This document shows positions 8,200 through 30,539 of a stretch of 64,000 nt of DNA, one piece after another. The first letter of the stretch is position 1. Each line of letters opens with the position of its first letter. The position numbers and the translations under genes are program-made. The notes beneath the pieces are model-generated. The model saw nothing but the letters and a program-made list of their open reading frames with translations. It was not told the DNA's origin and searched no databases. Origin of the DNA: an uncultured Chloroflexia bacterium (lineage in GTDB: Bacteria; Chloroflexota; Limnocylindria; Limnocylindrales; CSP1-4); assembly GCA_963748625.1 (NCBI GenBank), contig CAVVJT010000007.1, forward strand, positions 1 to 64,000, given 5' to 3'.

Positions 8200-8763
8200 T
8201 CACCAGCCGAGCGGTCGCCGCCGTCGCGCCGACAGCGTCACCCGGAGATGGGTCGGCAGCCGGCCCTGGAGGTTCAGGGGCGGGTCCATCCGGTCCAGGA
8301 TCGCGTGCTCCAGCGCCGGTAGCGAGGCCCGATCTGGCTCCGGCACCACGGCGACCGACAGGTGCTGGCGCATCCACGCGGACAGGCGCGCCTCACCGTC
8401 GCCCGAGAGCGCCCTCCCGCCTTCGTCGAGCAGGTGCAGTCGGCGTGCGAGGAGCGCCGCCAGCGTCATGCGGAACGTCGACCCGGTGATCGTCCCGCCC
8501 AGGTGGTTGCGGCGGATGCGGCTGCCCAGGCTGGCGCTGCTGGTGCCGGCGCCCGCCTGGCCCGCGTAGATCAGGCCGGGCAGGATGCGCTCGAGCGCGC
8601 CCTCGGACAGCTCCGTCGCCCCTTCGACATCGACGAACCAGGCGTAGACGCCGGGCTGGCGGGTGGCATCTGCCGCTGGCGTGAAGGCGGAAGCCGCGAT
8701 CCGGTTCGCCTCGTCGAGGAGGCTCGCAGCCACCTCATCGGCATCGCGGGGTCGGGCGGTCAC
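8200..8763 (-). CDS. GIY-YIG family nuclease
   Basis: PGVYAWF...LIYAGQA...RIRRNH..STFR..LE..PPLN. Confidence 0.8.
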   Translation of the reverse strand: MTARPRDADEVAASLLDEANRIAASAFTPAADATRQPGVYAWFVDVEGATELSEGALERILPGLIYAGQAGAGTSSASLGSRIRRNHLGGTITGSTFRMTLAALLARRLHLLDEGGRALSGDGEARLSAWMRQHLSVAVVPEPDRASLPALEHAILDRMDPPLNLQGRLPTHLRVTLSARRRRPLGW

Positions 8764-8770
8764 GTTCGTC

Positions 8771-9409
8771 CTAGTGCGCTGCCCAGTAGGCGTGGACGTC
8801 GGTCACGGCCCGCTCCCAGGCGGCCTCGAGGGACTCGCCGGGCTGCGCATAGCCCACCTCCTCCAGCGCGGGCAGGAAGCCCTCGGCGGGCATGCCGGTG
8901 GCCTTGCTCACCACCAGCGCGGTCAGGGGCGGACGGCCGGCGGTCGCCTCGTCTAGGGCGATCGTGTGCAGGAACCTGCCGACGTGGCCGCGATTGGTCT
9001 GCAGCTGCTCGTACGTGAGCGTCAGGCCTTCCCGGGCGGCGTCGATGATGCGCTGGTGCACCGCCTCGAGTGCCGCGGATCGCTCGGTCGGGAGCGGTCG
9101 ATCGGCGGACGCCCGCACTGCCCGCGGGGCGACCCGGCTGACGGCTGCGCGGGCGATCTCCCCCTCGGGCCGCCGCGCAAGGAGGCGCAGCGCCCGGACC
9201 GCCTCGTCGCGCGCGTCGGGCTGCGTCATCGCCAGGCGCTCGAGCCATGCCGAGACGGAGTCCAGCAGGTCCGGGCGCTTGCGGGCGGCGTCAACCAGGA
9301 CGGCGATGCAGGCGGAGCCGTGCTCGAGGAACGGATCGCGCAGGGTGATGCGATCGGCCGGCGCCGCATCGAGGAGCTCGCCGAGCAGATCGTCAAGTGA
9401 TCGCGTCAC
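8771..9409 (-). CDS. Hypothetical protein with C-terminal winged-helix-like domain
   Basis: GTG start after an AGGAG-like RBS; C-terminal LTYEQL..GRFL..GRPPLTALVVSKATGMP motif; co-oriented with GIY-YIG. Confidence 0.6.
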   Translation of the reverse strand: MTRSLDDLLGELLDAAPADRITLRDPFLEHGSACIAVLVDAARKRPDLLDSVSAWLERLAMTQPDARDEAVRALRLLARRPEGEIARAAVSRVAPRAVRASADRPLPTERSAALEAVHQRIIDAAREGLTLTYEQLQTNRGHVGRFLHTIALDEATAGRPPLTALVVSKATGMPAEGFLPALEEVGYAQPGESLEAAWERAVTDVHAYWAAH

Positions 9410-13073: not shown

Positions 13074-16000
13074 CTATACGACCTTCGGGTCCGGCACGAT
13101 CTCCACGTACGACGCCGTCAGCGCCTCGTGCTGCGCCGTGACCACGTCGCGCCCCGCCAGCGCGGCCAGCCGCCGGTCCCGGTCCTCCCCCACCGAGGCC
13201 ACGTTGCGCTCCGCGACCTCCAGGTTCTTGCGCCAGACCGGGATGATCCGCTGGACCTCCGGGTCCTCGGACGCGGAGAGCCGCTCGAACGTGGTCCGCA
13301 CCGCGGCCAGCTTCTCGGTCGCCGCCACCTCGCGGTAGGCGTAGAAGCGCTCCACCTTCTCGCGCTCCGCCGCGGCCCGCTCGCGGTTGGACACCTCCAG
13401 CTCCGCCTGGCGCTCGAACAGGCGCGTCACCACGGCCTCGTTCGCGAGGTCCACCGCCCCCTCGAGGCCGTCGAGCGAGGCCAGCGGCCCGGGCATGACC
13501 CAGTCCTCGCGCTTCATGCGGCCGGACGACTCCTGGAGCCAGACGGCCAGCTCGTCGTCCCGGCGCCCGTCGGCGTGGACGAAGACCGGCACGACCTCCT
13601 TGGAACCCACGACGCCCTGGAACTCCAGCTCGAACGTGAAGTACCAGCCGCGGGCCGGGGCGCGATCGAGAGTCCGGATCTCGCGCCGGCTGGCCCGGCC
13701 GCCGTAGTCGCGGGCGGTGCAGCGTGCAAGGAGCGCATCCACCACCTCGTGGCCGATGGCGAAGAACTCCAGCTCCTCGTGGTCGCGCGCGATGGCGGGA
13801 TCGAAGGTGCCGGTACGCGACCGCGCGTCTCTCACAAGATGCGGGAACTCGTTCTCGAAGCCGCCCTTGAGCTTGATGAAGTAGGCGTTGTCGATCTCGT
13901 AGTGCTTCTCCACGCTGGCGCCGAGCTCGGTCAGCGCGGTGAGCGTGAAGCGGCGCAGCAGGTCGCTGTTGACGGTGCCGCGGGCGCCCAGGAGGCGCTC
14001 CACCTCGTCCTTGCGGTAGGACTTGGTGTCCATGATCAGGTCGGCCAGCCGCTTCTCGACGGAGCGGGCCTCGCGGACGCGGGCCTCCAGCTGCTTGTCG
14101 AGCGCGCGGAGGGCCCGCTTGCCTTCGGCATCGGCCATGAGGAAGACCTTGCCGATGTCGTTCTCGACCTCGCCAAGGATGGGGTCGAGCCCGCCGATGG
14201 TCTCCTCGAAGACCCGGATCCGGTTGGTGAGGACGTCGAGGACGCGCTCCTCGATGGTGCCCAGCATCGAGAAGTTGAAGATCTTGACCGGGTGCTTCTG
14301 GCCGATGCGGTCAAGCCGGCCGATGCGCTGCTCGATCTTCATCGGGTTCCAGGGCAGGTCGTAGTTGACCAGGTTGTGGCAGAACTGGAAGTTGCGGCCC
14401 TCGCCGCCGGCCTCGGTGGAGATGAGGATCCGCGGGCCCTTGCCCTCGCGGAACGCGGTCACCGCGTCGTCCTTCTCCCGCGGGTCCAGCTGGCCGTGGA
14501 AGGTGTGGACGGTCCAGGGGCCGGGGATCTCCTGCGCCAGGTACTCCTGGGTGTCGCGGGACTGCGTGAAGATGAGGACCTTGGGGTTGGGACCGTCGGT
14601 CTCGAAGGCGGCGAGGCGCTTGATGAGGACCTGGGCCTTGGTGTCGAGGCCGATCTTGTCGATCAGCTCCACGATCGCGCGCAGGTCGCGCACCTCGGCC
14701 TTGGAATCCTCGATCGCGCGCAGGGCCAGCCAGTCATCGAGGGCGTCCTCGGCCGGCTCCTCGTCCAAGTCGATCTCGTCGGGATCGAGGGTGCCCGTGG
14801 GCGCCGGCATGCCGGATTCGAGCTTCTCGATGCGCCGCAGCAGGGACTCCCGGAGCGCGAAGGAGCTGCTGGAGCTGAGCTTCTGGAAGACGGCCATGAG
14901 GAAGCCGAGGGCGTTGTTGCGGGTGGCTCTCGAGCGCGCGTAGCCGGTGCGGACATACTCGGTGATGGCCGCGTAGGCCGCCCACTCCTGGTCGCTCATC
15001 TCCACGGGCCACACGGTGGCGACGCGGGGCATGAAGCCCCCGACCGTGGCCTTGCGGTTGCGGATGAGGATCTCGCTCAGGCGGTGCTTGGCGAGGAGCT
15101 CGTCGCGGACCTGGTCGCGGCCCTCTCCCGACGCGAGGCGGGCGGCGGCGGTGGGGCGGTCCGCGTCCAGCCAGGTGCCCACCGAGTCGATGGTGGCCAG
15201 CTGCTCCTGTGTCGCGAGCGTCTCCCAGCGGCGCACAAGGTCGACGGTCTGGTTGAGGCCGGCCAGCTGGGATCGATGGTCCTCGAAGTCCCGCTCGTCG
15301 GCGAAGAGGGTGGGGTCCAGGAGCTCGATCAGGGAGTACAGCTCGAAGGGGTCCAGCTGCATGGGGGTGGCGGTGAGCATCAGGAAGCCCAGCGAGCGGC
15401 CCTGGTCGGGGTCGGCGAGGGATTCGGCGAGGCGGTACAGCTTGGTGGAGCGGTACCTGCCCTCACCCTCGCGGGTCCGTCGGGCGTGGTGCGCCTCGTC
15501 GATGATCACGAGATCCCAGCCGGCGAGCGCGATGTCGGCCTGGCGCTTCTCGTCCCAGGCGGCGTAGGTGGTCGACGCGATGACGTTGTCGCGCAGGGTC
15601 CAGACGTTGTCGCCGGGATGCTCGGCGGCCAGGAACGCGGTGGAGGCGCGGTTGAAGTGCGAGAAGACCTCGTTGAACTTGGTGCGCAGCTCGTACTGCC
15701 ACTGGCTGACGATCCCTGGCGGCGCCAGGATGAGCACCCGGCTGGCGACGCCGCGGGCCTTGAGCTCCTTGATGATGAGGCCTGCCTCGACGGTCTTGCC
15801 CAGGCCCACCTCGTCCGCGAGGATGAAGCGGTGGGGGTACGACGTGGCCGCGCGGTGGACCACGCTGACCTGGTGCTCCTTGATCTCCACGCGGGAGTTC
15901 GACAGCGACGAGAGGCCGTCGAACTGGTGGGCGAGCAGCAGGCGGGTGGCCGCGACGCGCAGGTTGGTGGAGCGGGCAAGGCCGAGGTCGCCGCGACCGC

Positions 16001-16350
16001 AGGAGCGAGACGGGGTCCGTCACGAGGGCCGGCCGGAGCCCGGTCTCGGCGACCGCCTTGAGGGCGCCGCCCGCGAGCGCCACCTGGTAGACCACGACGC
16101 CGGCGTTGATGCTCAGCGCGGTCACGACGCCCACCTGGCGGTCCGCGGTCGATTCGACCTGGCTGCCGGCGTGGAAGACGACGCGCTCCAGCGCGGATGA
16201 CGGCCACGCGAACACGAGCGTCTCGCCCGAGTCGAAGTGGACCCGCGCCTGGCGGCCATCCTCGAGCGCCTCGATGACGACGCCGATGTTGCCCGCCTGG
16301 CCGTTCCGCCAGCGGACGAGGTTCCCGCGATGGATCGGCGGGACCGCCAC
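13074..16350 (-). CDS. SNF2-family (RapA/DrmD-like) helicase, frameshift near 15990
   Basis: LADEVGLGKT, DEAHH, LTATP, STEAGGEGRN, NYDLPWNP..EQRIGRLDRIGQ; N-terminal part in ORF 15463-16350. Confidence 0.9.
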
Positions 16351-19658: not shown

Positions 19659-19728
19659 GGACCGTTCGCTGCCGCTGGGCGGGCCCTGCGTGCAGCCCTG
19701 CCTGCCGCCGGGCGGGCCTGCCGCTGGG

Positions 19729-19856
19729 CGGGCCCTGTGTGCAGGATCCCGCACGTTCGGCCCGCCTGGCGGTTGGAATGGGCCTCGCCGGGGCCGAATC
19801 ACGCCAGATCTGCCGCCCAGCGGCACACCTGCGCGGAACTCCCCACACAAGGCCCG
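19729..19856. repeat. 128-bp MITE-like element, copy A
   Basis: 13-bp imperfect terminal IR CGGGCCCTGTGTG/CACACAAGGCCCG; near-identical copies at 23353 and 30115. Confidence 0.9.
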
Positions 19857-20108
19857 CTGGGCGGCAGGGCTGGGCGGCCGGGGGTGGCCGGGGGTGGCCC
19901 GCTGGGCGGCAGGGCCGGGCCGGAGGCAGCAGGGCCGGGGGGCCGAGGCAGGGCCGGGCCGGGCCGAGGCAGGACACGAACGGCCGGGCCGGGGGTGGCC
20001 CGCTGGGCGGCAGGGCCGGGCCAGCCAACCCGCCCCTTGCCCGGGTTATGCCGCAGCCGTGCGCAACACGTCACAATGTCGGCCCATACCCCAGGTACCC
20101 GAACACCC

Positions 20109-22587: not shown

Positions 22588-23172
22588 TCAGGGGGCCGGG
22601 GTGGCCGGGCCCCACAGGCCGAGGCCCTGGTCGCGGGCAGCCCGCTGGGCCTCGAGCAGGGCGTCCGTGTAGCGCACGTCCGGCGGATAGGTGACCACCT
22701 GGGCAACGCCGCGGGCAACGAGCTCCAGATTCACCATGCGGATGCTCCCGGGCCGGTCCTGGTCCTCCACCCAGGCATAGCGCAGGAGCCGGCCGAACCT
22801 GTCCGTGTCCGACACGTCCGTCTCCAGGAGCACCGTCCGCCCCTCGACGAGGCGCGCATTCTCCGCGGTCGCCTCCTTGGCCATGAACTCGACCGGGGTG
22901 TCCGGCTTGACGCTCTCGGGGGTGTCCACGCCGATGTACCGGACCCGCTCGTCGCCGCGCCCGCGGTCCACGATGATCGTGTCGCCATCGACCACGCGGA
23001 CGACGGTGGCCCGCTCGGTCTGGCCGATGGGGGTGGCGGCAGGCCCGCTCAGGGGTGGCGTGGGGGTCGCAAGGGCTGCGGGGGTCGTCGGGTTCGCGGG
23101 CGCCGCGCCGCCACACGCCGCAAACACCGCGACGGCCACGCCCAGGAGCAGGCAGACCAGCAGCTTCGGCAT
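22588..23172 (-). CDS. Thermonuclease (SNase) lipoprotein
   Basis: Lipobox FAAC; VVDGDT, RYIGVDTPE, DRFGRLLRY, GLW; leaderless start. Confidence 0.92.
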   Translation of the reverse strand: MPKLLVCLLLGVAVAVFAACGGAAPANPTTPAALATPTPPLSGPAATPIGQTERATVVRVVDGDTIIVDRGRGDERVRYIGVDTPESVKPDTPVEFMAKEATAENARLVEGRTVLLETDVSDTDRFGRLLRYAWVEDQDRPGSIRMVNLELVARGVAQVVTYPPDVRYTDALLEAQRAARDQGLGLWGPATPAP

Positions 23173-23352
23173 CCAGCGACGATACCCGCCCTCAGGGGAT
23201 CCGAGTCCCGCCGCCCTGCCTGCCGCCCGCGGGCGCCGTGCCTGCCGCCCGTCCACGCCGCCCTGCCTGCCGCTGGGCGCGCCCATGCCGCTGGGCCAGC
23301 CTGCCTGCCGCTGCGGCGGGCCTGCCTGCCGCTGGGCGGGCCTGCCGCTGGG

Positions 23353-23480
23353 CGGGCCCTGTGTGCAGGATCCCGCACGTTCGGCCCGCCTGGCGGTTGG
23401 AATGGGCCTCGCCGGGGCCGAATCACGCCAGATCTGCCGCCCAGCGGCACACCTGCGCGGAACTCCCCACACAAGGCCCG
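23353..23480. repeat. 128-bp element, copy B
   Basis: Matches copy A. Confidence 0.9.
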
Positions 23481-23633
23481 CTGGGCGGTTGGGGGCAGGC
23501 CGGTGGTGGCCGGGGGTGGCCCGCTGGGCGGCAGGGCCGGCGGTGGCCGGGGGTGGCAGGGCCGGGCCGGGGGCGGCTGGCCCGGCGCTTGCGGCAGGGC
23601 AGGGCCGGCCGACGGTCATCCCGGCCAGCGACG

Positions 23634-24807
23634 TCAGGGGCGCTCCCATGGCTGGTCGCCACCGAAGTGACCCTCGACCGCGAGCCGCTGCATCACCCCC
23701 GGCAGGTCACCAGGGTCCGCCGTCAGCGCCGCGCGCCACCGGTTCCCGCTGTCCCGCAGGGTGAGCGGGATTCTCGATGTGAACGGGGACGGGTCGAGCA
23801 GTGCGCCATCATCGGGGGCCAGCGACACCACCTGGGCCTCGCGATCGCCCGGCCGCCACAGCAGCTCCACGGTCGCCTCGCGCGCGGCCCCCGACCGCAC
23901 GACGGCCAGCGCGATCCGCCGGGCGATGACGCCGCCGGCCCGGTCCACCTTGAACCAGTCCTTCCCCGACCACGCCCCGCCCCCGATCGGCACGCGCGGC
24001 CCGTAGGCATCGGCGACGAGCTTCTTGCCCGACAGGCCGTTGTCGCCCATCGTGCCGCCACACTCGAAGTTGCCGGCCCCGTTGACCAGCACCCGTCCGG
24101 CGAGGTCGTCCGGGACCGTGAATACCGCTGGGGCCGCCGCGAGGGCCTCGGCCACCACCTCCACCACGGCCCGCCGGGTCAGGATCTCGTTCGCCCCCAC
24201 CGCCTGCTGCAGCGACACCGTCGATGCCCGGAGTGTCAACGAGGATGGGAAGGTCCACCCCGCGTCCCCGTTCAGGAGCCGCTCCTCGCACAGCACGGCG
24301 GCCTTCGCGTCGGGCCCCAGCCGCAGGTCCGGCCGGGCAGTCCTGAGCGCCTCCAGCCCCCGCACGATCCGGTGCGCCAGCCAGTGCTCGGCCGGCAGCC
24401 ACCCGGTCGATGGCGAGGCCACCGCATATCCCGTGCAGATCGCCTGGTCGTCGGACACCTCGCGGAAGTCATCCTCGCCGGGCAGCAGGGGCCCGGTGTC
24501 GAGGTCGCACACGATGCCGAGGCCCTCGGGGTCCGGCGGCCAGTCCGCGCCCAGCCCCAGGGATGCGTACCGGCGCTGGACGATCGCCTGGATGTCGCGC
24601 AGGCTGGAGCCCCGCTCCTGCCGCGCGCCCGGTGACGAAGACCATGCCCCGGTGCACGGCGACCTCCACCCCCACGAGGGCCCGGGGATTGCGCGCCATG
24701 GCAAGCCCCACGATGGCATCGGCGATCGCGTCGCAGATCTTGTCGGGATGGCCCGCGGCCACGGCTTCGGCAGCACGCAGACGGATGGACGGATCGAAGG
24801 TTCGCAT
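23634..24807 (-). CDS. Divergent S-adenosylmethionine synthetase (MetK-like), frameshift near 24610
   Basis: E.V..GHPDKICDAIAD; SDDQA in place of GAGDQG; PDAK; GDNGLSGKKLVADAYG; GGGAWSGKD..KVDR; GHFG...PWE. Confidence 0.85.
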
Positions 24808-24810
24808 CGG

Positions 24811-26154
24811 TCAGATCTCCAGGACGGCACTGCGCCGGACGAACCCCGCGAGGTCGGCCGGCACGTTGTGGCGGGTGTAGGCGGCGGCCAGGCGTATCCC
24901 GGCCAAGGTGTCGGCATCGGCCCCGACCGGCGTGCCGACGTAGCCGTCGGTGACGATCACAGCCCGCCGGATGTGGTTGGCCCGTGCGTGGGCGGCGACG
25001 CACTCGATGCTGGTGCCCCCGGTCGTCGCGAACCGCCCGGCCGCGAGATCGGCCATCGATGCCTCAGCGACCACCGTCGAGAACGCGTGGATCACCGGGT
25101 GGACGAGCTCCGAGCAGTCGCGCACGGCGGCCGCGAGCACGCCGACGAGCGGCGCCACGCTCCCCGACACGTCCAGGTACACATGGACGCGCTCACCGGC
25201 GCGAGTCCGCGCGGGCACCTCGACCTCCTGCTCGTGCAGCAGCAGCGGGCTCCCGAGCAGGCCGAGGACCACGTCGCGTCGCGCTCGCGACGGCAGCGGC
25301 CCAAGCTCCGCGTCCTCCACGGGCGCCCGCCGGAGACCGGTGCTGCCCCGGCTCGACATCCCGCCCGCCCAGCGCAGCAGGCTGCGCAGCCGGTCGCGGT
25401 TCCCCGGGACCCGCCGCGGCGGGACGCGGACCGCCCGGAGCGCGTACGAGAACGACCGGCCCTTGATCGGGCTGGGCGGCTGCGGCCACTGCTCCACGAT
25501 CTTGCGGACGACGTCGAGCAGCACCGGCGACCGGTGCTCGAGGTCGCCCTCGTGGAGCCCGCCCGCCTCGTGCCCGCCCAGCAGCGGGATCGCCTCCGCC
25601 CGCACCTCGGGGCAGACCTCCCGCAGGGCATCGCGCAGCTCCTCGTAGGAGACGCCGTCGCGCGAGTACAGCGCCCGGTGGACGTCGGCGAGGCGCCGGT
25701 ACCCCATGGCCACCAGCGCCCTGCTGGCAGATGGCTCCTCCTCCGGGCGCCACCCGGCGGCCGGCCGCAGCAGCGCCTCGGGCACCCGGTCTCCACGATA
25801 GAAGGAGGTGAGGAGCTCGATGCCCCGCGGGTCGGGAAAGAGACGGCAGAGCATCGCGTTGACGACCGCGTCGAACACCAGGTTGTCGAATGACGTCGTG
25901 ACCGGCAGCAGCCGCGTGTGACCGAGCACCACGTGATGGAGCTCGTGCATGACGAGCATCAGGAGGCGCTCGGGGGTGTACGCATGCTCGCGTGCGAACT
26001 GCGGGTTGATGAGCATCCGCGGGACCGGGCCACCTTCGACGGCGGCCGTGGGCACGTCGGTCGATTCGGTGATGTCCACGAGCCGGAACAGCGCCTGGAG
26101 GCCGTACGTGCCGGGCGGCACGCAGTCGAGGATGCGGGCCATGAGATCGCTCAT
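24811..26154 (-). CDS. HExxH metallopeptidase-like + vWA domain protein (DUF2201-type)
   Basis: VPTAAV..INPQF..MHELHHV; MIDAS DVSGS, GGT, VTDG. Confidence 0.85.
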   Translation of the reverse strand: MSDLMARILDCVPPGTYGLQALFRLVDITESTDVPTAAVEGGPVPRMLINPQFAREHAYTPERLLMLVMHELHHVVLGHTRLLPVTTSFDNLVFDAVVNAMLCRLFPDPRGIELLTSFYRGDRVPEALLRPAAGWRPEEEPSASRALVAMGYRRLADVHRALYSRDGVSYEELRDALREVCPEVRAEAIPLLGGHEAGGLHEGDLEHRSPVLLDVVRKIVEQWPQPPSPIKGRSFSYALRAVRVPPRRVPGNRDRLRSLLRWAGGMSSRGSTGLRRAPVEDAELGPLPSRARRDVVLGLLGSPLLLHEQEVEVPARTRAGERVHVYLDVSGSVAPLVGVLAAAVRDCSELVHPVIHAFSTVVAEASMADLAAGRFATTGGTSIECVAAHARANHIRRAVIVTDGYVGTPVGADADTLAGIRLAAAYTRHNVPADLAGFVRRSAVLEI

Positions 26155-26717
26155 TGCGAGGCCTCCTCGATGCTGCGGGCCCGCTCGAGGACGCGCGCGG
26201 GCCAGCCGGGTGCGTCGATCGCGGCGAGGATCCGATCCCGCAGGTCCGGGCCGACCAGCAGGGTCGCGGTGCTGTCAGCGGCGAGAGGGATCCCCACCGC
26301 ACACGGGCGCCGGCGCAGCCAGATGGGTCCGGACCGCTGGCTGAGCAACGTCCAGGCGAGCAGGGGTTCCACGCGCTCGGTGACAACCGGCAGGTTCCCG
26401 CGGCCGGCCAGCGGGAGCACCGAGGGCAGGTCGAGCAGCTCGGGGACCGCGCGGGTGATCGCCTCGAGCCGGCGGATCGCGTCGGCATCGCGCGCGTACA
26501 GCGCCCAGCGGGCCCCACCCAGCACGCGGAGCAGCTGGCGTCGGGAGCGGATGGTGCGGCCATCGCCAGCGCCGAGGCGGAGGCTGACGGCGGGGACAAG
26601 CTGGCGCGTGGGATCGTCCGAGGGGTGGACCACCGCGACCCTCGGGTTGCAGGACATGTTCCCCAGGCGGGGCGGCGGGATGTGGCCGGGCAGGGTGTCG
26701 ATGCCGGGAAGCACCAT
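26151..26717 (-). CDS. Hypothetical protein (188 aa) in the MoxR-vWA operon
   Basis: Start overlaps the upstream stop (TGATG); stop overlaps the vWA start (ATGA). Confidence 0.65.
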   Translation of the reverse strand: MVLPGIDTLPGHIPPPRLGNMSCNPRVAVVHPSDDPTRQLVPAVSLRLGAGDGRTIRSRRQLLRVLGGARWALYARDADAIRRLEAITRAVPELLDLPSVLPLAGRGNLPVVTERVEPLLAWTLLSQRSGPIWLRRRPCAVGIPLAADSTATLLVGPDLRDRILAAIDAPGWPARVLERARSIEEASQ

Positions 26718-26818
26718 CACGAGGCCGCCGCTGCCACTGCGGCCACCGTCGTCGCGTCGGCCACCGTCGTCGCGTCGGCCACAGTCGTCGCGTCGGCCAT
26801 CGTCGTCGCGTCGCCCAT
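26717..26818 (-). CDS. 33-aa repeat micro-ORF MGDATTMADATTVADATTVADATTVAAVAAAAS
   Basis: TGATG overlaps at both ends; four 18-bp repeats. Confidence 0.35.
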   Translation of the reverse strand: MGDATTMADATTVADATTVADATTVAAVAAAAS

Positions 26819-28329
26819 CACGCGGCCACCGCCAACACGCCGGCACGCTTCTTGAGCCGCAGACGCGTGGTCCTCCAGCCCGCGATCGCCTGGCGGACGT
26901 CCCTGGTGCTCCCGATGCGCTGCGCGCCCCACAGGCCAACGAGCAGGTTCTCGAGGTACGCGGACTCCGTGCTCGGCCGCCACCCGCTGACGCGCCTGGT
27001 GATCTCGAGCCATGCCTCGTGGCGGGGCGTCCTGGTCCCGAGCATCTCGTGGACGCCCTGCGGCGTGGACACCATCGCGTAGGCCTCGGCCAGCTGCGCG
27101 GCGACGGCGCCCAGCAGGCCGTCGGCGAGGCCCGCGTCGAAGGCGTACACCGCGACCGCCTCGCGCGTCCCGTTGGCAAGGTCGGCGTAGCCGTCGGCCA
27201 CGGCCGTCGAGCGGAGGACCTGCTCCAGGGCGGGGGTCTCGAGGGCCGTGAGCATGCGCTCGAACCGGTTCGGGATGGCGAGGAGGGCGTGGACCGGACT
27301 GTCGGGTGCGGCCCGGCTGGCCCCGAGCCCCTCGCAGTGCGCGGCGACCACCTTGTGCTCCTCGATCGTGCCGCCCGATGCGCGCTGGGGGAGGCCGTTG
27401 CGCACGGCGAGCAGGGCGGCGTCGTCGGGCGCCACCAGCCCGGTCGCACGGATGGCGAGGATCGAGCGGACGAGCGACGCGCCCCGGCGCGGCGAGCACT
27501 CGAGGCCGGCCTCGTCGAGACAGCGCAACACGGTGCGCACGTAGACCGCGACTGAGGTGTCCGGCACGGCCAGCGCGCCGACGTACCGGGCCCGGGCCCC
27601 CTCCACGGCCGACCGGAGGCGTGCCTCGGCCGCCGCGTCACGCGTGCCGAGGTCCGCGAGGAGCAGCCGCTCCTGGTCGGCCGCGGACAGGCCGCGCCAG
27701 TCGGGCACTGGGACGATGAACGGGAAGCGGTCCGCGAGTGCGGCATCGAGCGGCTCGGCACCGGTGTAGCCCGCGTCACCCCGCACGCCGCTGGCGCCCT
27801 GGGCGTCCGCTGAGCCTGCGATGCCCGGAGGGTCATCGTCGGCCGGCACCGGGTTCATCGCGCTCCAGCGGAAGCGCAGGTCCGGGAGGTCGAGCCCCTG
27901 CACCTTGCGCTCGTGGATGATCGGGAAGAGCTTGTTCTGGATCGAGGGCCTGCAGCGATTGATCTCGTCGAGGAAGACCGCCTCCGCCTTCCAGATGGTC
28001 GCGGGGGTCTGCGCGTACTCGAGGCCGCCGCGTCCGTCGAGGACCGGGTAGCCGACGAGATCGTCGTAGCTCAGCAGGCTCGCGTTGTAGTGGCGCCACG
28101 ACAGGCCGAGCGCCTCGGCCACGCGGGTCAGGAGCAGGCTCTTGCCGGTGCCGTGCGACCCGACCAGGAGCATCGGCAGCTCCGACGCCAGGGCCGCGAT
28201 CACGACCGCCTCGACCTCGCCGAAGCCGATGATGCCCAGGCCCTCGAGCAGGCCCGCGCCCCTGGTCATCGCCGCCGCGCGGCCCGTGGCGCCGGCCGCC
28301 CCGGCCTGCGGATGGTGCGTTGTTCCCAT
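26818..28329 (-). CDS. MoxR-family AAA+ ATPase with long C-terminal extension
   Basis: Walker A GSHGTGKS, Walker B FLDEINR, SAMNP, LDAALADRF, SPRR. Confidence 0.9.
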   Translation of the reverse strand: MGTTHHPQAGAAGATGRAAAMTRGAGLLEGLGIIGFGEVEAVVIAALASELPMLLVGSHGTGKSLLLTRVAEALGLSWRHYNASLLSYDDLVGYPVLDGRGGLEYAQTPATIWKAEAVFLDEINRCRPSIQNKLFPIIHERKVQGLDLPDLRFRWSAMNPVPADDDPPGIAGSADAQGASGVRGDAGYTGAEPLDAALADRFPFIVPVPDWRGLSAADQERLLLADLGTRDAAAEARLRSAVEGARARYVGALAVPDTSVAVYVRTVLRCLDEAGLECSPRRGASLVRSILAIRATGLVAPDDAALLAVRNGLPQRASGGTIEEHKVVAAHCEGLGASRAAPDSPVHALLAIPNRFERMLTALETPALEQVLRSTAVADGYADLANGTREAVAVYAFDAGLADGLLGAVAAQLAEAYAMVSTPQGVHEMLGTRTPRHEAWLEITRRVSGWRPSTESAYLENLLVGLWGAQRIGSTRDVRQAIAGWRTTRLRLKKRAGVLAVAA

Positions 28330-28360
28330 GTGCACGTCCTCCATCCGGCCTGGGTTTCGC

Positions 28361-28394
28361 ACCGTGTCCCCGGCGTGCGACCGGGTCCGGTTGC
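28361..28394 (-). promoter_or_regulatory. Shared 34-bp promoter motif, copy 7 (degenerate)
   Basis: Sense strand GCAACC-GGACCC-GGTCGC-N10-CACGGT. Confidence 0.4.
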
Positions 28395-28460
28395 GGCGCC
28401 TTCGCTGGGCCAGGCCCCTCCGGCGCTCTCGATGGATCCGCTGTGGTGCAGCGGCAGGTG

Positions 28461-29396
28461 TCAGCGATGGGCGGCAGCGGCCTCCAGGGTCAGGCGGTGG
28501 AGCTTGACGAGCTCGTCCTGGTCCAGGCGGCCGCCGGTGTAGCCGCCGGCGAGGACGAAGGCGATGGGCAGGTTCCGCTCCCTGGCCCAGCCGAAGACGG
28601 CGGCCTCACGTTGGGCGAGGAGCGCATGGGTGATGCCGTCGAGACCGCCGGTGCTGCACCGTTCGAAGGGGTCCATGCCGGCGTTGTAGATGACGAGGGG
28701 CCGGCGGTCCGTGTCCACGGCGGCGAGGCGCCTGCGCAACGTCGGGAGGTAGTCGGCCGAGTCGACGATGAGGTCGAGCGTCCAGGCCGCCGGCTGGGCA
28801 TAGGCATCGAAGTAGCTGGTGGCGATGTCCACCGTGGTCACGCGCGGGTCGTCTCCGAGCAGCTCGGCCGTTCCGCCGCCGCAGTGGGCGTCCAGGTCGA
28901 CGATCACCACGCGCTCCACGCCCTGCTCGATGGCCGCGTCCGCGGCGACCGCGAGGCCGTTGAAGGTGCAGAAGCCGGCGCCCCGGCTGCGGCGCGCGTG
29001 GTGCAGGCCCGATGAGAGCGATCCCCCCGTCCCGGTGTCCATCGCCGCGAGGGCTGCGGCGACGGCGCCGCCGGTGCTCGCGCTGGTGGTGGTCCAGAGC
29101 CCCAGGTCCCAGGGGAACCCGCCGTCGTCCGAGCGCTCCGGTGGCTCGCCGGTGCGGATCGCCTCCACGTACGCCCGCTCGTGGACCCTGGTCAGGCGGT
29201 CCGCGGTGGCGGGGGCCGGCTCCCGGAGCTCGATTCCCTCGATGGGCCGGTCCTGCAGCGAGGCGACGATCCAGGCCGCCTTGCGGGTCGTGTCGAACGC
29301 GGGCCCGCCCGTCACATAGGCCTCGGAATAGAAGACGGGGACAGTTCGCCCCGGACTCTCGCCCGGTCGTCCACGCCGGCCACCGCCGTCAGACAT
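28461..29396 (-). CDS. Histone deacetylase-family (Zn-dependent) hydrolase
   Basis: VHERAYV, GLHHA, GFCTFN, DLDAHCGGGT, YNAGMD, LAGGY. Confidence 0.9.
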   Translation of the reverse strand: MSDGGGRRGRPGESPGRTVPVFYSEAYVTGGPAFDTTRKAAWIVASLQDRPIEGIELREPAPATADRLTRVHERAYVEAIRTGEPPERSDDGGFPWDLGLWTTTSASTGGAVAAALAAMDTGTGGSLSSGLHHARRSRGAGFCTFNGLAVAADAAIEQGVERVVIVDLDAHCGGGTAELLGDDPRVTTVDIATSYFDAYAQPAAWTLDLIVDSADYLPTLRRRLAAVDTDRRPLVIYNAGMDPFERCSTGGLDGITHALLAQREAAVFGWARERNLPIAFVLAGGYTGGRLDQDELVKLHRLTLEAAAAHR

Positions 29397-29527
29397 GCGC
29401 ACACCTCCATCGAACCCGGCATTAGCACCGTGCTGCTCTCGCGGCCGGTTGCTGCGTCGTCAACGAGCCGGGGCTCTCAGACGCTCGTGATGGGGTGCCG
29501 CGCTCGTGACGCGGCCTCGTTGTCCCA

Positions 29528-29561: not shown

Positions 29562-29859
29562 AGGGGCCGACGCCGGCTGCGGCCTGTGGTCTTCGGTCCC
29601 GCCGCATCGCTACAGCCTTGGCACCGTGCCGGTCCCGGGTGGACCGGTGGTTGCCCGCGTCGTCGTGGGGCTGTATCCCTCGGACGCTGTCTGGATGCGG
29701 ATCGCGTGTCTCGCGACCCGTGAATCCTATGCCGTGCCATAGGCGCCTGTCCAGCGGTCCGGCGTTGCGAGTGGCGTTGCGGGCCGCCCGGTGGCGTCGG
29801 CCCACCCTGCTCGCCGTCGGCTCACCGTGCCAGCTCGCCGTCGGCCGCCCGCCGCCCTG

Positions 29860-30030
29860 CCTGCCGCCCGCCCACGCCGCCCTGCCTGCCGCTGGGCGCG
29901 CCCATGGCTCACCATGCCTGCCGCCCGCCCACGCCGCCCTGCCTGCCGCTGGGCGCGCCCATGGCTCACCATGCCTGCCGCCCGCCCACGCCGCCCTGCC
30001 TGCCGCTGGGCGGGCCCATGGCTCACCATG
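29860..30030. repeat. 57-bp tandem repeat x3
   Basis: Unit CCTGCCGCCCGCCCACGCC...CCCATGGCTCACCATG at 29860, 29917 and 29974. Confidence 0.85.
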
Positions 30031-30114
30031 CCTGCCGCCCGCAGCCCTGCCTGCCGCTGCTGCGGGCCTGCCTGCCGCTGGGCGGGCCTGCCGCTGGGCG
30101 GGCCTGCCGCTGGG

Positions 30115-30242
30115 CGGGCCCTGTGTGCAGGATCCCGCACGTTCGGCCCGCCTGGCGGTTGGAATGGGCCTCGCCGGGGCCGAATCACGCCAGATCTGCC
30201 GCCCAGCGGCACACCTGCGCAGAACTCCCCACACAAGGCCCG
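30115..30242. repeat. 128-bp element, copy C
   Basis: One substitution seen versus copies A and B. Confidence 0.9.
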
Positions 30243-30539
30243 CTGGGCGGTTGGGGGCAGGCCGGTGGTGGCCGGGGGTGGCCCGCTGGGCGGCAGGGCC
30301 GGGCCGGGCCGAGGCAGGACACGAACGGCCGGGCCGGGGCAGCAGGGCCGGGCCGGGCCGAGGCAGGACACGAACGGCAGGGCCGGGCCGGGCCGACGCA
30401 GGACACGAACGGCCGGGCCGGGGGTGGCCCGCTGGGCGGCAGGGCCGGGCCGGGCCGAGGCAGGACACGAACGGCCGGGCCGGCCGCGGCACGACACCCC
30501 CGGCCGGGCGGTAGCATCGGCCGCGGAGGACGCCCACCC

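Follow-up and report, generated by a model that had tools for sequence, protein, structure and literature searches.

A conserved MoxR/small protein/HExxH-vWA/MetK-like cassette with SAM-I riboswitch aptamers in an uncultured Chloroflexota bacterium

The analyzed window comprises the first 64,000 nt of contig CAVVJT010000007.1 (assembly GCA_963748625.1) of an uncultured Chloroflexia bacterium. Five co-oriented genes on its minus strand, all with a coding-type GC3, encode a histone deacetylase (HDAC)-like protein, a MoxR-type AAA+ ATPase, a small protein (S), a HExxH-vWA protein (V) and a MetK-like paralogue (K; Table 1). The deacetylase stop lies 131 nt ahead of the MoxR ATG. TGATG overlaps connect the MoxR stop to the ATG of a micro-ORF and the micro-ORF stop to ATG 26717, the stop of the small-protein gene and the start of the V gene overlap in ATGA, and the K gene begins 3 nt past the V stop. 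The tightly joined arrangement described in the initial annotation, with the deacetylase at this distance upstream, was thus borne out by coordinates, GC3 and stop/start overlaps. The micro-ORF is a doubtful gene, since it consists entirely of 18-nt tandem repeats, five in number, and has no counterpart in related loci, where the S gene follows 11–104 nt after the MoxR stop in 38 of 39 cases and after 206 nt in one.

Table 1. Features of the cassette locus in the window.
Feature	Position	Strand	Remarks
254-nt repeat copy, downstream of the block	23318-23571	+	93% identical to upstream copy
MetK-like paralogue K	23634-24807	-	Pfam S-AdoMet_synt_C 67.4 bits; two frames in the window
Protein V, HExxH-vWA	24811-26154	-	447 aa; weak Pfam VWA_CoxE match, 18.1 bits
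Small protein S	26151-26717	-	188 aa, or 168 aa from ATG 26657
Five 18-nt tandem repeats	26717-26818	-	Readable as a 33-codon micro-ORF; repeat family D4
MoxR-type AAA+ ATPase	26818-28329	-	503 aa; Pfam AAA_5 50.6 bits, bpMoxR 27.0 bits
SAM-I aptamer directly before MoxR	28338-28438	-	RF00162 46.1 bits
HDAC-like zinc deacylase	28461-29396	-	311 aa from ATG 29396; Pfam PF00850 Hist_deacetyl 123.6 bits
SAM-I aptamer directly before the deacetylase start	29404-29496	-	RF00162 50.2 bits
First SAM-I-like aptamer in the tandem pair ahead of the deacetylase gene	29601-29701	-	RF00162 42.2 bits, sub-threshold
Sigma-70-like -35/-10 pair TGGACA-18-TAGGAT	29724-29753	-	Just upstream of the first aptamer; consensus match only
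254-nt repeat copy, upstream of the block	about 30080-30338	+	93% identical to downstream copy

The conservation of the gene order was analyzed in 80 related loci from at least eight phyla, which were kept from 347 genome matches. V adjoins K in 75 of the 80 loci and a MoxR homologue heads the cassette in 56. Wherever all three genes are held (56/56), they occur on one strand in the order MoxR, V, K, and 44 of the 50 ORFs between the MoxR and vWA genes belong to the S family. Consequently, this cross-phylum search established that MoxR, the small protein, the HExxH-vWA protein and the MetK-like protein are a true unit kept across phyla, as had been supposed for the window. Truncated cassettes were found at three loci (L038, L052 and L096). 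V was detected in none of 300 other sampled genomes of the same phylum, including 15 of the same family and the single genome of the same genus.

The deacetylase, which the initial annotation counted as part of the system, was found in 0 of the 80 related loci and is therefore a local, lineage-specific, co-regulated add-on outside the conserved cassette. Its translation shows the HH, DxH, D and GGY motifs and its nearest solved chain is 9gkv_B (E 1.6e-33); no support could be found for the proposal that it reverses acetylation by an attacker. In other lineages, a DUF3293 gene or an N-formylglutamate-amidohydrolase-like (FGase-like) gene may stand in its place. DUF3293 lies about 100–2,000 nt from the cassette in 11 of the 80 loci, in six of these between the aptamer and MoxR (a second copy at L015 is 5.6 kb off), and the FGase-like gene lies 22–160 nt past K in five loci.

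An element of about 100 nt shared by the 5′ regions of the deacetylase and MoxR genes had been taken for a common promoter motif. This was rejected, as the element matches RF00162 and is a SAM-I riboswitch aptamer (gathering cut-off 44.4 bits). The first aptamer of the tandem pair is a full-length match to the model with E 7.7e-8 in a 1.5-kb search. The 4.6-Mb genome contains no RF00162 match besides these three, and no riboswitch was found at its canonical metK at E ≤ 0.1. P4 is very short and nearly absent in all three aptamers. In the two directly preceding a gene, the 3′ strand of P1 is GAUGGAGG, located 7–8 nt before the ATG, and it ends in a GGAGG ribosome-binding site 7 nt before ATG 29396 and 8 nt before ATG 28329, respectively. 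Upstream SAM-I or SAM-I/IV aptamers could be identified in 34 of 40 related loci scanned (44 aptamers, with two in 10 loci), so that the cassette is headed by this type of aptamer in the majority of the other phyla as well; all 44 precede MoxR on its coding strand, and the remainder of the 561 kb scanned gave no match. The other six loci hold no above-threshold aptamer: L009 and L036 gave only sub-threshold SAM-II-like matches (26–28 bits, gathering 36), and the scan of L033, L051, L055 and L060 yielded no aptamer match at all. In two genomes (G303 and G304) the cassette aptamer is the sole SAM-I-clan match.

The sigma-70-like pair is the only promoter-like site between 22400 and 30600 (mean of 0.2 in shuffled sequences) and is a possible promoter of the whole unit. 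The repeats noted initially do bracket the block, with a length of 254 nt and 93% identity instead of the 128 bp stated. Besides a third copy at 19697-19939, the genome contains about 40 scattered, degenerate ones.

K shows the three-domain MetK fold with a full-length match to solved SAM synthetases (E 7.5e-56), about 32% identity to canonical MetK and a TIGR01034 score of 153 bits (cut-off 309.4). The MetK tree and the search for a separate canonical metK that had been proposed initially placed K in a paralogue clade of its own, split from canonical MetK with 100/100 support on joining branches of 4.0 and 3.5 changes per site, and located a canonical metK elsewhere on the same contig. K was always an extra copy wherever genome completeness allowed a judgement; the canonical metK lies directly downstream of K at L012, L035, L062 and, by clustering, L052, and in Planctomycetota the housekeeping metK is within the same operon as the cassette. 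The motifs GHPDK, PD.K, GD.GL.GKK and GGGA.SGKD..KVDR are invariant in K, and the ATP, magnesium and potassium ligands are retained. An invariant Arg replaces the Glu of ..GE.., and the loop holding the canonical Gln is replaced as well; in canonical enzymes, this Glu binds the methionine amino group and the Gln binds methionine. The Lys and Asp that touch the carboxylate and amino group of methionine in canonical MetK are kept. Judged by these residues, K is not an ordinary MetK, and due to the two altered methionine-binding positions the synthesis of SAM from free L-methionine may not be its reaction.

In the window, the K gene is split into two frames, with 60-odd N-terminal codons (ATG 24807) separated from the rest (23634-24629) by a shift near 24602. 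This might reflect a real frameshift in a decaying remnant and thus a cassette that is non-functional in this genome, in line with the truncated cassettes mentioned above and with a contig of run X1 that stops exactly at 24602 without bridging it. We consider this improbable. Near-identical contigs from two public runs of two studies (X2 and X6), with 0 and 3 mismatches in 151 nt, are one base shorter at 24602, and removing this base yields a single frame of 390 codons. The GC3 of both frames is of the coding type, and their similarity to intact homologues is undiminished up to the junction; the remaining genes and the three aptamers are all intact, and two genes at the start of the contig, PGI and PutA, are likewise split, which resembles an indel-prone assembly. 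The frameshift is therefore probably an assembly error, and K is probably not the decayed pseudogene that the initial annotation had named as evidence against its proposal.

MoxR carries Walker A (GTGKS) and Walker B (DEIN) motifs and a long C-terminal part, about half of the protein, to which no family was assigned. Among solved chains, it is nearest to the AAA domains of midasin, to NorQ and to RavA, and the bpMoxR model matches weakly, right at the cut-off. V combines an N-terminal, DUF2201_N-like putative metallopeptidase domain (HExxHxxxGH) with a C-terminal vWA domain with a complete MIDAS; H70, E71, H74, H79, D328, S330, S332, T381 and D403 are invariant in 36 sequences. By comparison of structure models, its vWA part matches NorD of the NorQD complex (E 5.8e-4, probability 1.0). 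V of the window has no PF13203 match at E ≤ 0.01; PF13203 or PF05762 is present in part of its homologues, and an NCBI record bears the title 'DUF2201 family putative metallopeptidase'.

S has no Pfam match, no assigned family and no solved relative, and by its sequence it is a new family, with 387 cluster representatives, the best 150 of which are all 100–251 aa long. The predicted model (pLDDT 82.5; residues 1–40 below 60) consists of a disordered N-terminal tail, in which an LLHNMSxPP-type motif is conserved, and a confidently predicted alpha/beta domain after it, for which the best match in a fold search against the PDB had an E of only 1.1. Asn-Met is nearly invariant in this tail, and synonymous codon variation ahead of the conserved Met indicates that the tail is translated. 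Since gene calls begin at this Met in some family members, it could be the initiator there.

Taken together, we favour, with modest confidence, a mobile, self-contained module that has spread horizontally, is induced by SAM shortage and in which a MoxR-vWA machine serves a MetK-type enzyme. With SAM bound, P1 would close, hide the GGAGG and turn translation off; at low SAM, P1 would open and translation would be turned on. The cassette would then provide K, which should still carry out adenosyl transfer because all ATP-, magnesium- and potassium-binding residues are kept. A dedicated machine of a MoxR AAA+ hexamer, V as vWA/MIDAS adaptor with a metallopeptidase-like domain, and S may accompany it; motor and adaptor would most likely assemble, activate or unblock the MetK-type enzyme, by analogy to CbbQ-CbbO with Rubisco and NorQ-NorD with NO reductase. 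K itself would be one possible target and the housekeeping MetK perhaps another, S could be a docking or regulatory piece, and the net output would be extra SAM or a SAM precursor. The housekeeping MetK is not known to require a chaperone, and the step from chaperone to client is therefore an analogy only. The HExxH motif is invariant and hints at proteolysis, for which the activase model offers no explanation. A module answering SAM depletion, as suggested in the initial annotation, fits well with the riboswitch control, whatever drains the SAM.

The changes at the methionine site also allow for a rather unlikely alternative, in which K adenosylates another sulfur nucleophile than free L-methionine. 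Candidates are a modified or N-blocked methionine and a methionine residue within a protein or peptide, for example in the S tail; MoxR/V would present or process the protein substrate, and variable hydrolases (HDAC; elsewhere FGase-like, DUF3293, Macro or ADP-ribosylglycohydrolase) would finish or reverse the product, resulting in SAM salvage or a new adenosylated molecule, the latter being close to the non-standard adenosylated product considered in the initial annotation. Both partner-subunit methionine positions (the Glu-to-Arg change and the replaced Gln loop) are affected next to an intact ATP site, a hydrolase gene recurs in or beside the riboswitch-controlled unit, in the window with aptamers of its own, and the translated, disordered S tail offers its nearly invariant Asn-Met. 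However, the hydrolase family is inconstant (HDAC in none and DUF3293 in 11 of the 80 loci), the Lys and Asp that contact the methionine carboxylate and amino group in canonical MetK are kept, and the conserved Met of S could be an initiator in some members. Moreover, SAM synthesis is the simplest fit to negative feedback by the riboswitch.

A defence role, as proposed in the initial annotation, found little support and is considered quite improbable. In this reading, phage SAM lyases or other attackers would drain SAM, the riboswitch would sense this, and the cassette would restore SAM with an enzyme insensitive to the phage inhibitor or trigger protection. Such a sensor would need exactly the induction at low SAM, and the very patchy spread (V in 0/300 same-phylum genomes), the own riboswitch brought along across phyla and the varying context, in which integrases, C5 methylases, WYL, Mza and Mokosh genes turn up occasionally, would agree with it. 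In contrast, PADLOC assigned no family to HDAC, S, V and K and gave only weak generic AAA matches for MoxR, and a toxin-like effector is missing from the cassette. Among 130 ORFs of the upstream flanks, two matched defence families, both as DNA methylases of one kind; among 116 downstream ORFs, each defence family was matched by three at most. No matches occurred in 50,697 phage records, the plasmid search matched canonical metK only, and the IMG/VR match is one contig of 2.9 million.

A published description of this cassette was not found in a literature search, in agreement with the initial statement that no system of such composition is described. Cassette and SAM-sensing control together point to an undescribed way of sustaining the main methyl donor of the cell.

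With the S-box regulon (metK of Bacillus and relatives), the cassette shares the RF00162 aptamer in the coding-strand 5′ leader, the predicted off switch and a regulated MetK-family gene, whereas here this gene is a deep paralogue instead of metK, P4 is nearly absent and control is predicted to be translational, via the Shine-Dalgarno sequence in P1. MoxR, S and V are not known to be members of that regulon, and the literature search gave no such listing. K shares the full-length three-domain fold and the invariant ATP, magnesium and potassium ligands of canonical MetK (TIGR01034), from which it differs by the Glu-to-Arg change and the new loop at the methionine site. DUF2201/DUF2201_N proteins beside MoxR-like ATPases have, like V, an N-terminal HExxH domain followed by a vWA domain; the defining traits of the V family are a constant association with S and K and the control by riboswitches.

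The vWA-MoxR ternary conflict systems (Kaur, Burroughs, Iyer and Aravind, 2020; PMC7159879) have in common with the cassette a MoxR and vWA regulatory core, a patchy distribution and the weak bpMoxR match; the cassette differs from them in lacking a beta-propeller, domains of the effector-associated or death-like type and a toxin effector. None of the terms MetK, SAM synthetase, DUF2201, HExxH and deacetylase occurred in the text passages searched.

The cassette also resembles CbbQ-CbbO (Rubisco activase) and NorQ-NorD (iron insertion into NO reductase), in which a MoxR AAA_5 gene is likewise linked to a protein ending in a MIDAS-vWA domain in an operon with one enzyme. The vWA model of V is closest to NorD, and the AAA domain matches NorQ. 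In comparison to both systems, the candidate client of the cassette is a MetK-type adenosyltransferase, the adaptor V also bears the invariant HExxH..GH domain, a conserved small protein of new fold joins as fourth component, MoxR has 503 aa with a C-terminal half of no assigned family, and the unit is under SAM riboswitch control.

On the minus strand of the window, five genes with a coding-type third-position G + C content are located between positions 23634 and 29402. The HDAC-like deacetylase gene is followed by a cassette consisting of a MoxR gene, the gene of a small protein (S), the gene of an HExxH-vWA protein (V) and that of a MetK-like paralogue (K). The gene junctions are as described in the initial annotation: the HDAC stop codon lies 131 nt before the MoxR ATG, a 33-codon micro-ORF is flanked by TGATG overlaps, S and V overlap in ATGA, and 3 nt separate the V stop from the K start. 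The micro-ORF is made up of five 18-nt tandem repeats and has no counterpart in the related loci of other genomes. The HDAC translation shows the HH, DxH, D and GGY motifs and has 9gkv_B as its nearest solved chain (E 1.6e-33), while the MoxR translation contains Walker A (GTGKS) and Walker B (DEIN) motifs, with midasin, NorQ and RavA as nearest solved relatives. A hybrid histidine kinase gene and a staphylococcal-nuclease-like (SNase-like) gene adjoin the block on one side, the latter directly downstream of the cassette and present in 0 of 80 related loci. On the other side, panB, an aminotransferase gene and a gene for a Cys/Met-metabolism PLP enzyme are found. Genes for a GIY-YIG nuclease-domain protein and a SNF2/RapA-like helicase are located upstream of the region. 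The block was found in 14 public sequencing runs, all with small shares (0.06-0.13), and no RNA run was among those listed.

The 5′ regions of HDAC and MoxR align to each other over about 130 nt. The sequence that had been taken for a shared promoter motif was identified by Rfam as the aptamer of the SAM-I riboswitch. Two aptamers exceed the gathering threshold, and a third one, scoring just below it, forms a tandem pair with the aptamer before HDAC. These are the only three RF00162 matches in a search of the whole 4.6-Mb assembly, and for the leader of the canonical metK no riboswitch was detected at E ≤ 0.1. P1, P2 and P3 as well as the core strings AUC.AGAG, GGUGC.AA and GAU align to RF00162, whereas P4 is nearly absent (3 nt versus 19 nt in the model); judged by this sequence feature, the window aptamers tend toward the SAM-I/IV type of the related loci. 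The aptamers sit in the 5′ leader on the coding strand and end 7-8 nt plus the Shine-Dalgarno sequence before the HDAC and MoxR ATGs. Since the 3′ strand of P1 reads GAUGGAGG in both above-threshold aptamers, the ribosome-binding site lies within P1, 7-8 nt before the ATG. The element is predicted to be an off switch, in which binding of SAM would block translation, and the operon behind it ends in the MetK paralogue.

Features of the window and of related loci (L-numbers), with positions and database matches
Feature	Sequence	Position	Strand	Match or remark
HDAC-family deacylase	window	28461-29396	-	PF00850, 123.6 bits (cut-off 27.9)
MoxR-type AAA+ ATPase	window	26818-28329	-	AAA_5 (PF07728), 50.6 bits (cut-off 22)
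Small protein S	window	26151-26717	-	no Pfam family
HExxH + vWA protein V	window	24811-26154	-	VWA_CoxE, only 18.1 bits (cut-off 26.4)
MetK-like gene K	window	23634-24807	-	S-AdoMet_synt_C, 67.4 bits
SAM-I aptamer before HDAC	window	29404-29496	-	RF00162, 50.2 bits (gathering 44.4)
SAM-I aptamer before MoxR	window	28338-28438	-	RF00162, 46.1 bits (gathering 44.4)
Sub-threshold SAM-I aptamer	window	29601-29701	-	RF00162, 42.2 bits (gathering 44.4)
SNase-like gene	window	22588-23199	-	PF00565, 67.5 bits; NucI-like, 111.6 bits
GIY-YIG nuclease-domain protein	window	8203-8802	-	
SNF2/RapA-like helicase	window	13077-16019	-	981 aa
254-nt element, three copies	window	19697-19939, 23318-23571, 30080-30338		93-94% identical
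Three 57-nt tandem repeats	window	29855-30042		97-100% identical
Sub-threshold SAM-II	L009	4404-4485		RF00521, 26-28 bits (threshold 36)
Sub-threshold SAM-II	L036	4257-4330		RF00521, 26-28 bits (threshold 36)
DUF3293 between SAM aptamer and MoxR	L025	367-795		
DUF3293 between SAM aptamer and MoxR	L028	3636-4091		
DUF3293 between SAM aptamer and MoxR	L029	3538-3966		
DUF3293 between SAM aptamer and MoxR	L039	3862-4287		
DUF3293 between SAM aptamer and MoxR	L042	3537-3965		
DUF3293 between SAM aptamer and MoxR	L049	3351-3935		
Canonical metK after K	L012	3345-4979		Planctomycetota
Canonical metK after K	L035	8989-9951		Planctomycetota
Canonical metK after K	L062	9008-10180		Planctomycetota
Large ADP-ribosylglycohydrolase + CDKN3-like phosphatase	L003	3381-4886		same strand as K
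Large ADP-ribosylglycohydrolase + CDKN3-like phosphatase	L004	3472-5646		same strand as K
MoxR, S and truncated V	L096	1322-4316		IMG/VR contig
Phage tail assembly chaperone gene	L096	5399-6055		other strand, after truncated V

For 45 of the related loci, at least 150 nt are available before MoxR, and 40 of these were scanned with Rfam at gathering thresholds. SAM-I or SAM-I/IV aptamers were detected in 34 of the 40 loci. In total, 44 aptamers were found, all of them on the coding strand upstream of MoxR, and none elsewhere in the 561 kb scanned. Ten loci carry two aptamers. In 26 of these 34, no more than about 285 nt separate the end of the last aptamer from the estimated start of MoxR; in the other eight it ends 557-959 nt upstream, with one or two small ORFs on the same strand in between, including DUF3293 in five of the eight. 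A sixth locus with DUF3293 behind an aptamer (L028) has a second aptamer after this gene and is counted among the 26. The layout of the window, aptamer, accessory gene, aptamer and MoxR, is repeated in L028 and L050. No gathering-level aptamer was found in six of the 40 loci. Two of them (L009 and L036) show sub-threshold SAM-II matches immediately before MoxR, a weak hint from the sequence that these cassettes may carry a second riboswitch class. The remaining four (L033, L051, L055, and L060) gave no riboswitch match at all, with only 323 nt upstream in L055. In a Burkholderiaceae chromosome (G303) and an Arcobacter MAG (G304), as in the window genome, the cassette aptamer is the sole SAM-I-clan match, which means that the sensor moves together with the cassette.

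Among 8,000 sequences scored, 1,130 relatives of K were found at E ≤ 0.001, which are typically about 360-390 aa long and contain all three MetK domains. Scanning of one genome per species resulted in 347 loci with a K relative, of which 80 were kept. The MAGs and isolates in which they lie carry the labels Chloroflexota, Acidobacteriota, Planctomycetota, Nitrospirota/Nitrospinota, Verrucomicrobiota, Alpha-, Beta- and Gammaproteobacteria, Arcobacter and Bacteroidaceae; the closest homologues of K and V are from MAGs labelled Chloroflexota. Records of Solibacter usitatus and Limnohabitans represent cultured carriers. V is located directly upstream of K in 75 of the 80 loci. Of the other five, four have a contig end within 530 nt, so that only L044 is a true exception. 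In 56 loci, MoxR is present. Among the 19 loci with V and without MoxR, the contig ends first in 17, and L038 and L052 are truncated cassettes. The conservation of the MoxR / S / V / K block in other genomes is borne out by the gene order, as MoxR, V and K follow each other on one strand in 56 of 56 loci, and the ORF in the gap between MoxR and V belongs to the S family in 44 of 50 loci. The S family comprises 387 cluster representatives in a library of 1.84 billion proteins; because the best 150 of these are all 100-251 aa long, it was seen without fusions. For V, at least 858 relatives exist. Hundreds of species from at least eight phyla carry the cassette. The deacetylase, which the initial annotation had counted as a component of the system, was found in 0 of the 80 related loci and is thereby ruled out as a core component.

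A canonical metK of 392 aa is located elsewhere in the genome, on the same contig at about 383-385 kb. Both copies are likewise present in four of five further carriers, the remaining one being a partial genome of 1.6 Mb. As had been proposed, K falls outside the housekeeping MetK proteins: a maximum-likelihood tree separates 32 MetK-like from 6 canonical sequences with 100/100 support, and the branches between the two groups amount to 4.0 and 3.5 changes per site. An intact K homologue (P0006) reaches 153 bits against the equivalog TIGR01034, under the cut-off of 309.4. The K family profile matches solved SAM synthetases over the full length (E 7.5e-56), and the homologues carry PF00438, PF02772 and PF02773. 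The residues that bind ATP, Mg and K do not vary (GHPDK, the Glu of ..VE.., PD.K, F, GD, KK, GGGA.SGKD and K.DR). In canonical MetK, methionine is bound by a Glu of the partner subunit, which contacts the amino group, and by a Gln. In the paralogue, an invariant Arg replaces this Glu, and the loop of the methionine-binding Gln is replaced. In three Planctomycetota loci a canonical metK follows directly after K in the same orientation at a distance of about 84 nt, and clustering indicates the same arrangement in a fourth (L052).

In the window sequence, the first 60-odd codons of K are in another frame than the rest. The contig records of two public sequencing runs from different studies, X2 (151 nt, 0 mismatches) and X6 (151 nt, 3 mismatches), have one base fewer at position 24602, and a contig of a third run (X1) ends at this position without bridging it; the depths of the covering contigs, 2-3, make this suggestive and not a proof. 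Without that base, a single frame of 390 codons extends from the ATG at 24807 to the stop at 23634. Because the X2 and X6 contigs lack the base and the genes of PGI and PutA are split as well, the frameshift is read as a probable assembly error, as in an indel-prone assembly. The split genes belong to the first 8,000 nt of the window, which have a G + C content of about 50% versus about 72-75% for the rest and encode a 6-phosphogluconate dehydrogenase-like protein, PGI (two ORFs) and PutA (three ORFs). This part is possibly the chimeric start of the contig or DNA of foreign origin, affected by indel errors or by decay.

Among 36 sequences, the HExxHxxxGH motif of V (H70, E71, H74, and H79) and its complete MIDAS (D328, S330, S332, T381, and D403) show no variation. 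The AlphaFold2 model of V (pLDDT 79.5, pTM 0.48) has two domains joined by a disordered linker (residues 223-248). The C-terminal domain matches NorD, LapA-vWA, Ro60 and Rea1-MIDAS, the closest being NorD of the NorQD complex (E 5.8e-4). For the N-terminal HExxH domain no informative fold match was obtained, as the matches were dominated by the vWA domain. The window protein does not match PF13203 (DUF2201_N) at E ≤ 0.01, the L096 homologue reaches 19.7 bits, under 23.2, and a precomputed match exists for a minority of V homologues. S was modelled with a pLDDT of 82.5 and a pTM of 0.74, confidently from about residue 43 onward (residues 1-40 score 55-59), and a fold search against solved structures gave no match (best E 1.1). 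The family is most strongly conserved within the disordered tail of S, at LLHNMSxPPKSV, where Asn, Met and Pro occur in 90% or more of the sequences. The tail is translated, since synonymous variation is seen in the codons ahead of the Met and these codons follow the MoxR stop; with this stop 11-206 nt upstream, an overlapping MoxR end or an untranslated start is ruled out as the source of LLHN. A kinship of S to CHAT/separase proteins (Protein Atlas, 0.83-0.85) was taken as chance, the best score (0.89) belonging to unnamed clusters. PDB sequence searches with S, V and DUF3293 gave nothing meaningful.

Several families recur next to the cassette: DUF3293 in 11 loci, a second VWA protein in nine (with a MerR-like gene in four of them), Macro in six, an FGase-like amidohydrolase in five (22-160 nt after K), and ADP-ribosylglycohydrolase and WYL in four each. 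DUF3293 is located between aptamer and MoxR in six of its loci and just downstream of the cassette in five further ones; its Protein Atlas search returned its own family only. The two Chloroflexota loci closest to the window (L003 and L004) are among those with an ADP-ribosylglycohydrolase, which here forms one large protein with a CDKN3-like phosphatase, 0.9-1.5 kb after K. An ARPP-1 domain was observed among the downstream ORFs.

The distribution of the cassette is patchy. V was detected in none of 300 further genomes from the phylum of the window; this sample included 15 genomes of the same family and the one genome of the same genus (97% complete). A plasmid search revealed canonical metK only and no members, and phage records gave no match. 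In IMG/VR a single contig (L096) was found, carrying MoxR, S and a V truncated at about residue 324, behind which the gene of a phage tail assembly chaperone follows; this cassette may have been the insertion site of a prophage. The bracketing repeats described in the initial annotation are present at both ends of the block, their length being 254 nt at 93% identity and not 128 bp. A core of about 150 nt occurs in about 40 degenerate copies in the genome (about 70% identity), some of which match both strands. The third local copy and these copies make ends of a mobile element less likely, and for the same reason the repeats look like a dispersed, partly palindromic intergenic family. The 57-nt tandem repeats are located between the riboswitch leader and panB, by a 254-nt repeat. 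The window genome assembly has a size of 4.6 Mb and 7.7% contamination, and the 15 genomes of the same family have 2.6-3.8 Mb. Contigs from several organisms may be mixed in the bin, which makes the taxonomic assignment of the window contig uncertain.

Genes under an off switch that senses a ligand usually act to increase the amount of this ligand. Because the genes regulated here include one for a MetK-type enzyme and, in a single phylum, also metK, the cassette probably serves SAM supply under SAM shortage. The changed methionine site of K, the invariant HExxH of V and the recurring co-regulated hydrolases would also fit a different, rather unlikely reading, in which K carries out a new adenosyl transfer and not ordinary SAM synthesis. 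A blocked or protein-borne methionine, such as that in the Asn-Met tail of S, would act as nucleophile; MoxR and V would feed or process the substrate, and the product would be set free by interchangeable hydrolases (HDAC, FGase-like, DUF3293, Macro or ARH). If true, this would be without precedent, either as a riboswitch-governed SAM salvage route or as a protein-bound sulfonium cofactor.

Induction at low SAM and the patchy spread would be expected of a defence module as well, as the initial annotation had proposed, but contextual support is lacking and we regard this as improbable. Defence families were detected in only 2 of 130 ORFs of the upstream flanks, both of them DNA methylases. In the downstream flanks, 116 of 211 ORFs were scanned (from loci L003-L043), and no defence family occurred in more than three of them; the Mza, Mokosh, WYL and Cas4-like nuclease models had matches in single ORFs. 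PADLOC-DB 2.0.0 gave no family for HDAC, S, V or K, and MoxR matched only weakly an RtcR-type AAA (E 0.001-0.006).

In agreement with the view that no system of this composition has been described, the literature search found no paper joining these elements, none combining MoxR, vWA and S-adenosylmethionine synthetase, and none pairing a SAM riboswitch with MoxR or with von Willebrand. No paper was found for DUF3293, and those found for DUF2201 look unrelated from the portions available. The available part of PMC7159879 mentions no MetK, SAM synthetase, DUF2201, HExxH or deacetylase. The main text of PMC2864571 on SAM-I/SAM-IV variants, in the part available, gives no gene context, and its Additional Files 1 and 6 may list downstream genes.

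SAM is the main methyl donor in cells. To our knowledge, its synthesis is taken to need only MetK. In the cassette, a deep MetK paralogue is combined with an AAA+ motor, a MIDAS/metallopeptidase adaptor, a protein with a new fold and a SAM riboswitch of its own, a context hidden by the present annotation of the K family as S-adenosylmethionine synthetase or hypothetical protein. It provides a gene context for many SAM-I/IV riboswitches of environmental bacteria and raises the possibility of a SAM-synthetase "activase" or of a new adenosylation chemistry. As the riboswitch gives the physiological cue, low SAM, the function can be tested directly. For the role in SAM supply, CbbQO and NorQD offer an analogy for a tentative mechanism, to which we give somewhat less than an even chance: a MoxR hexamer together with the MIDAS adaptor would act on the MetK-type enzyme, with S as a docking or regulatory piece, and this enzyme would be a new candidate client for the MoxR-vWA remodelling systems.
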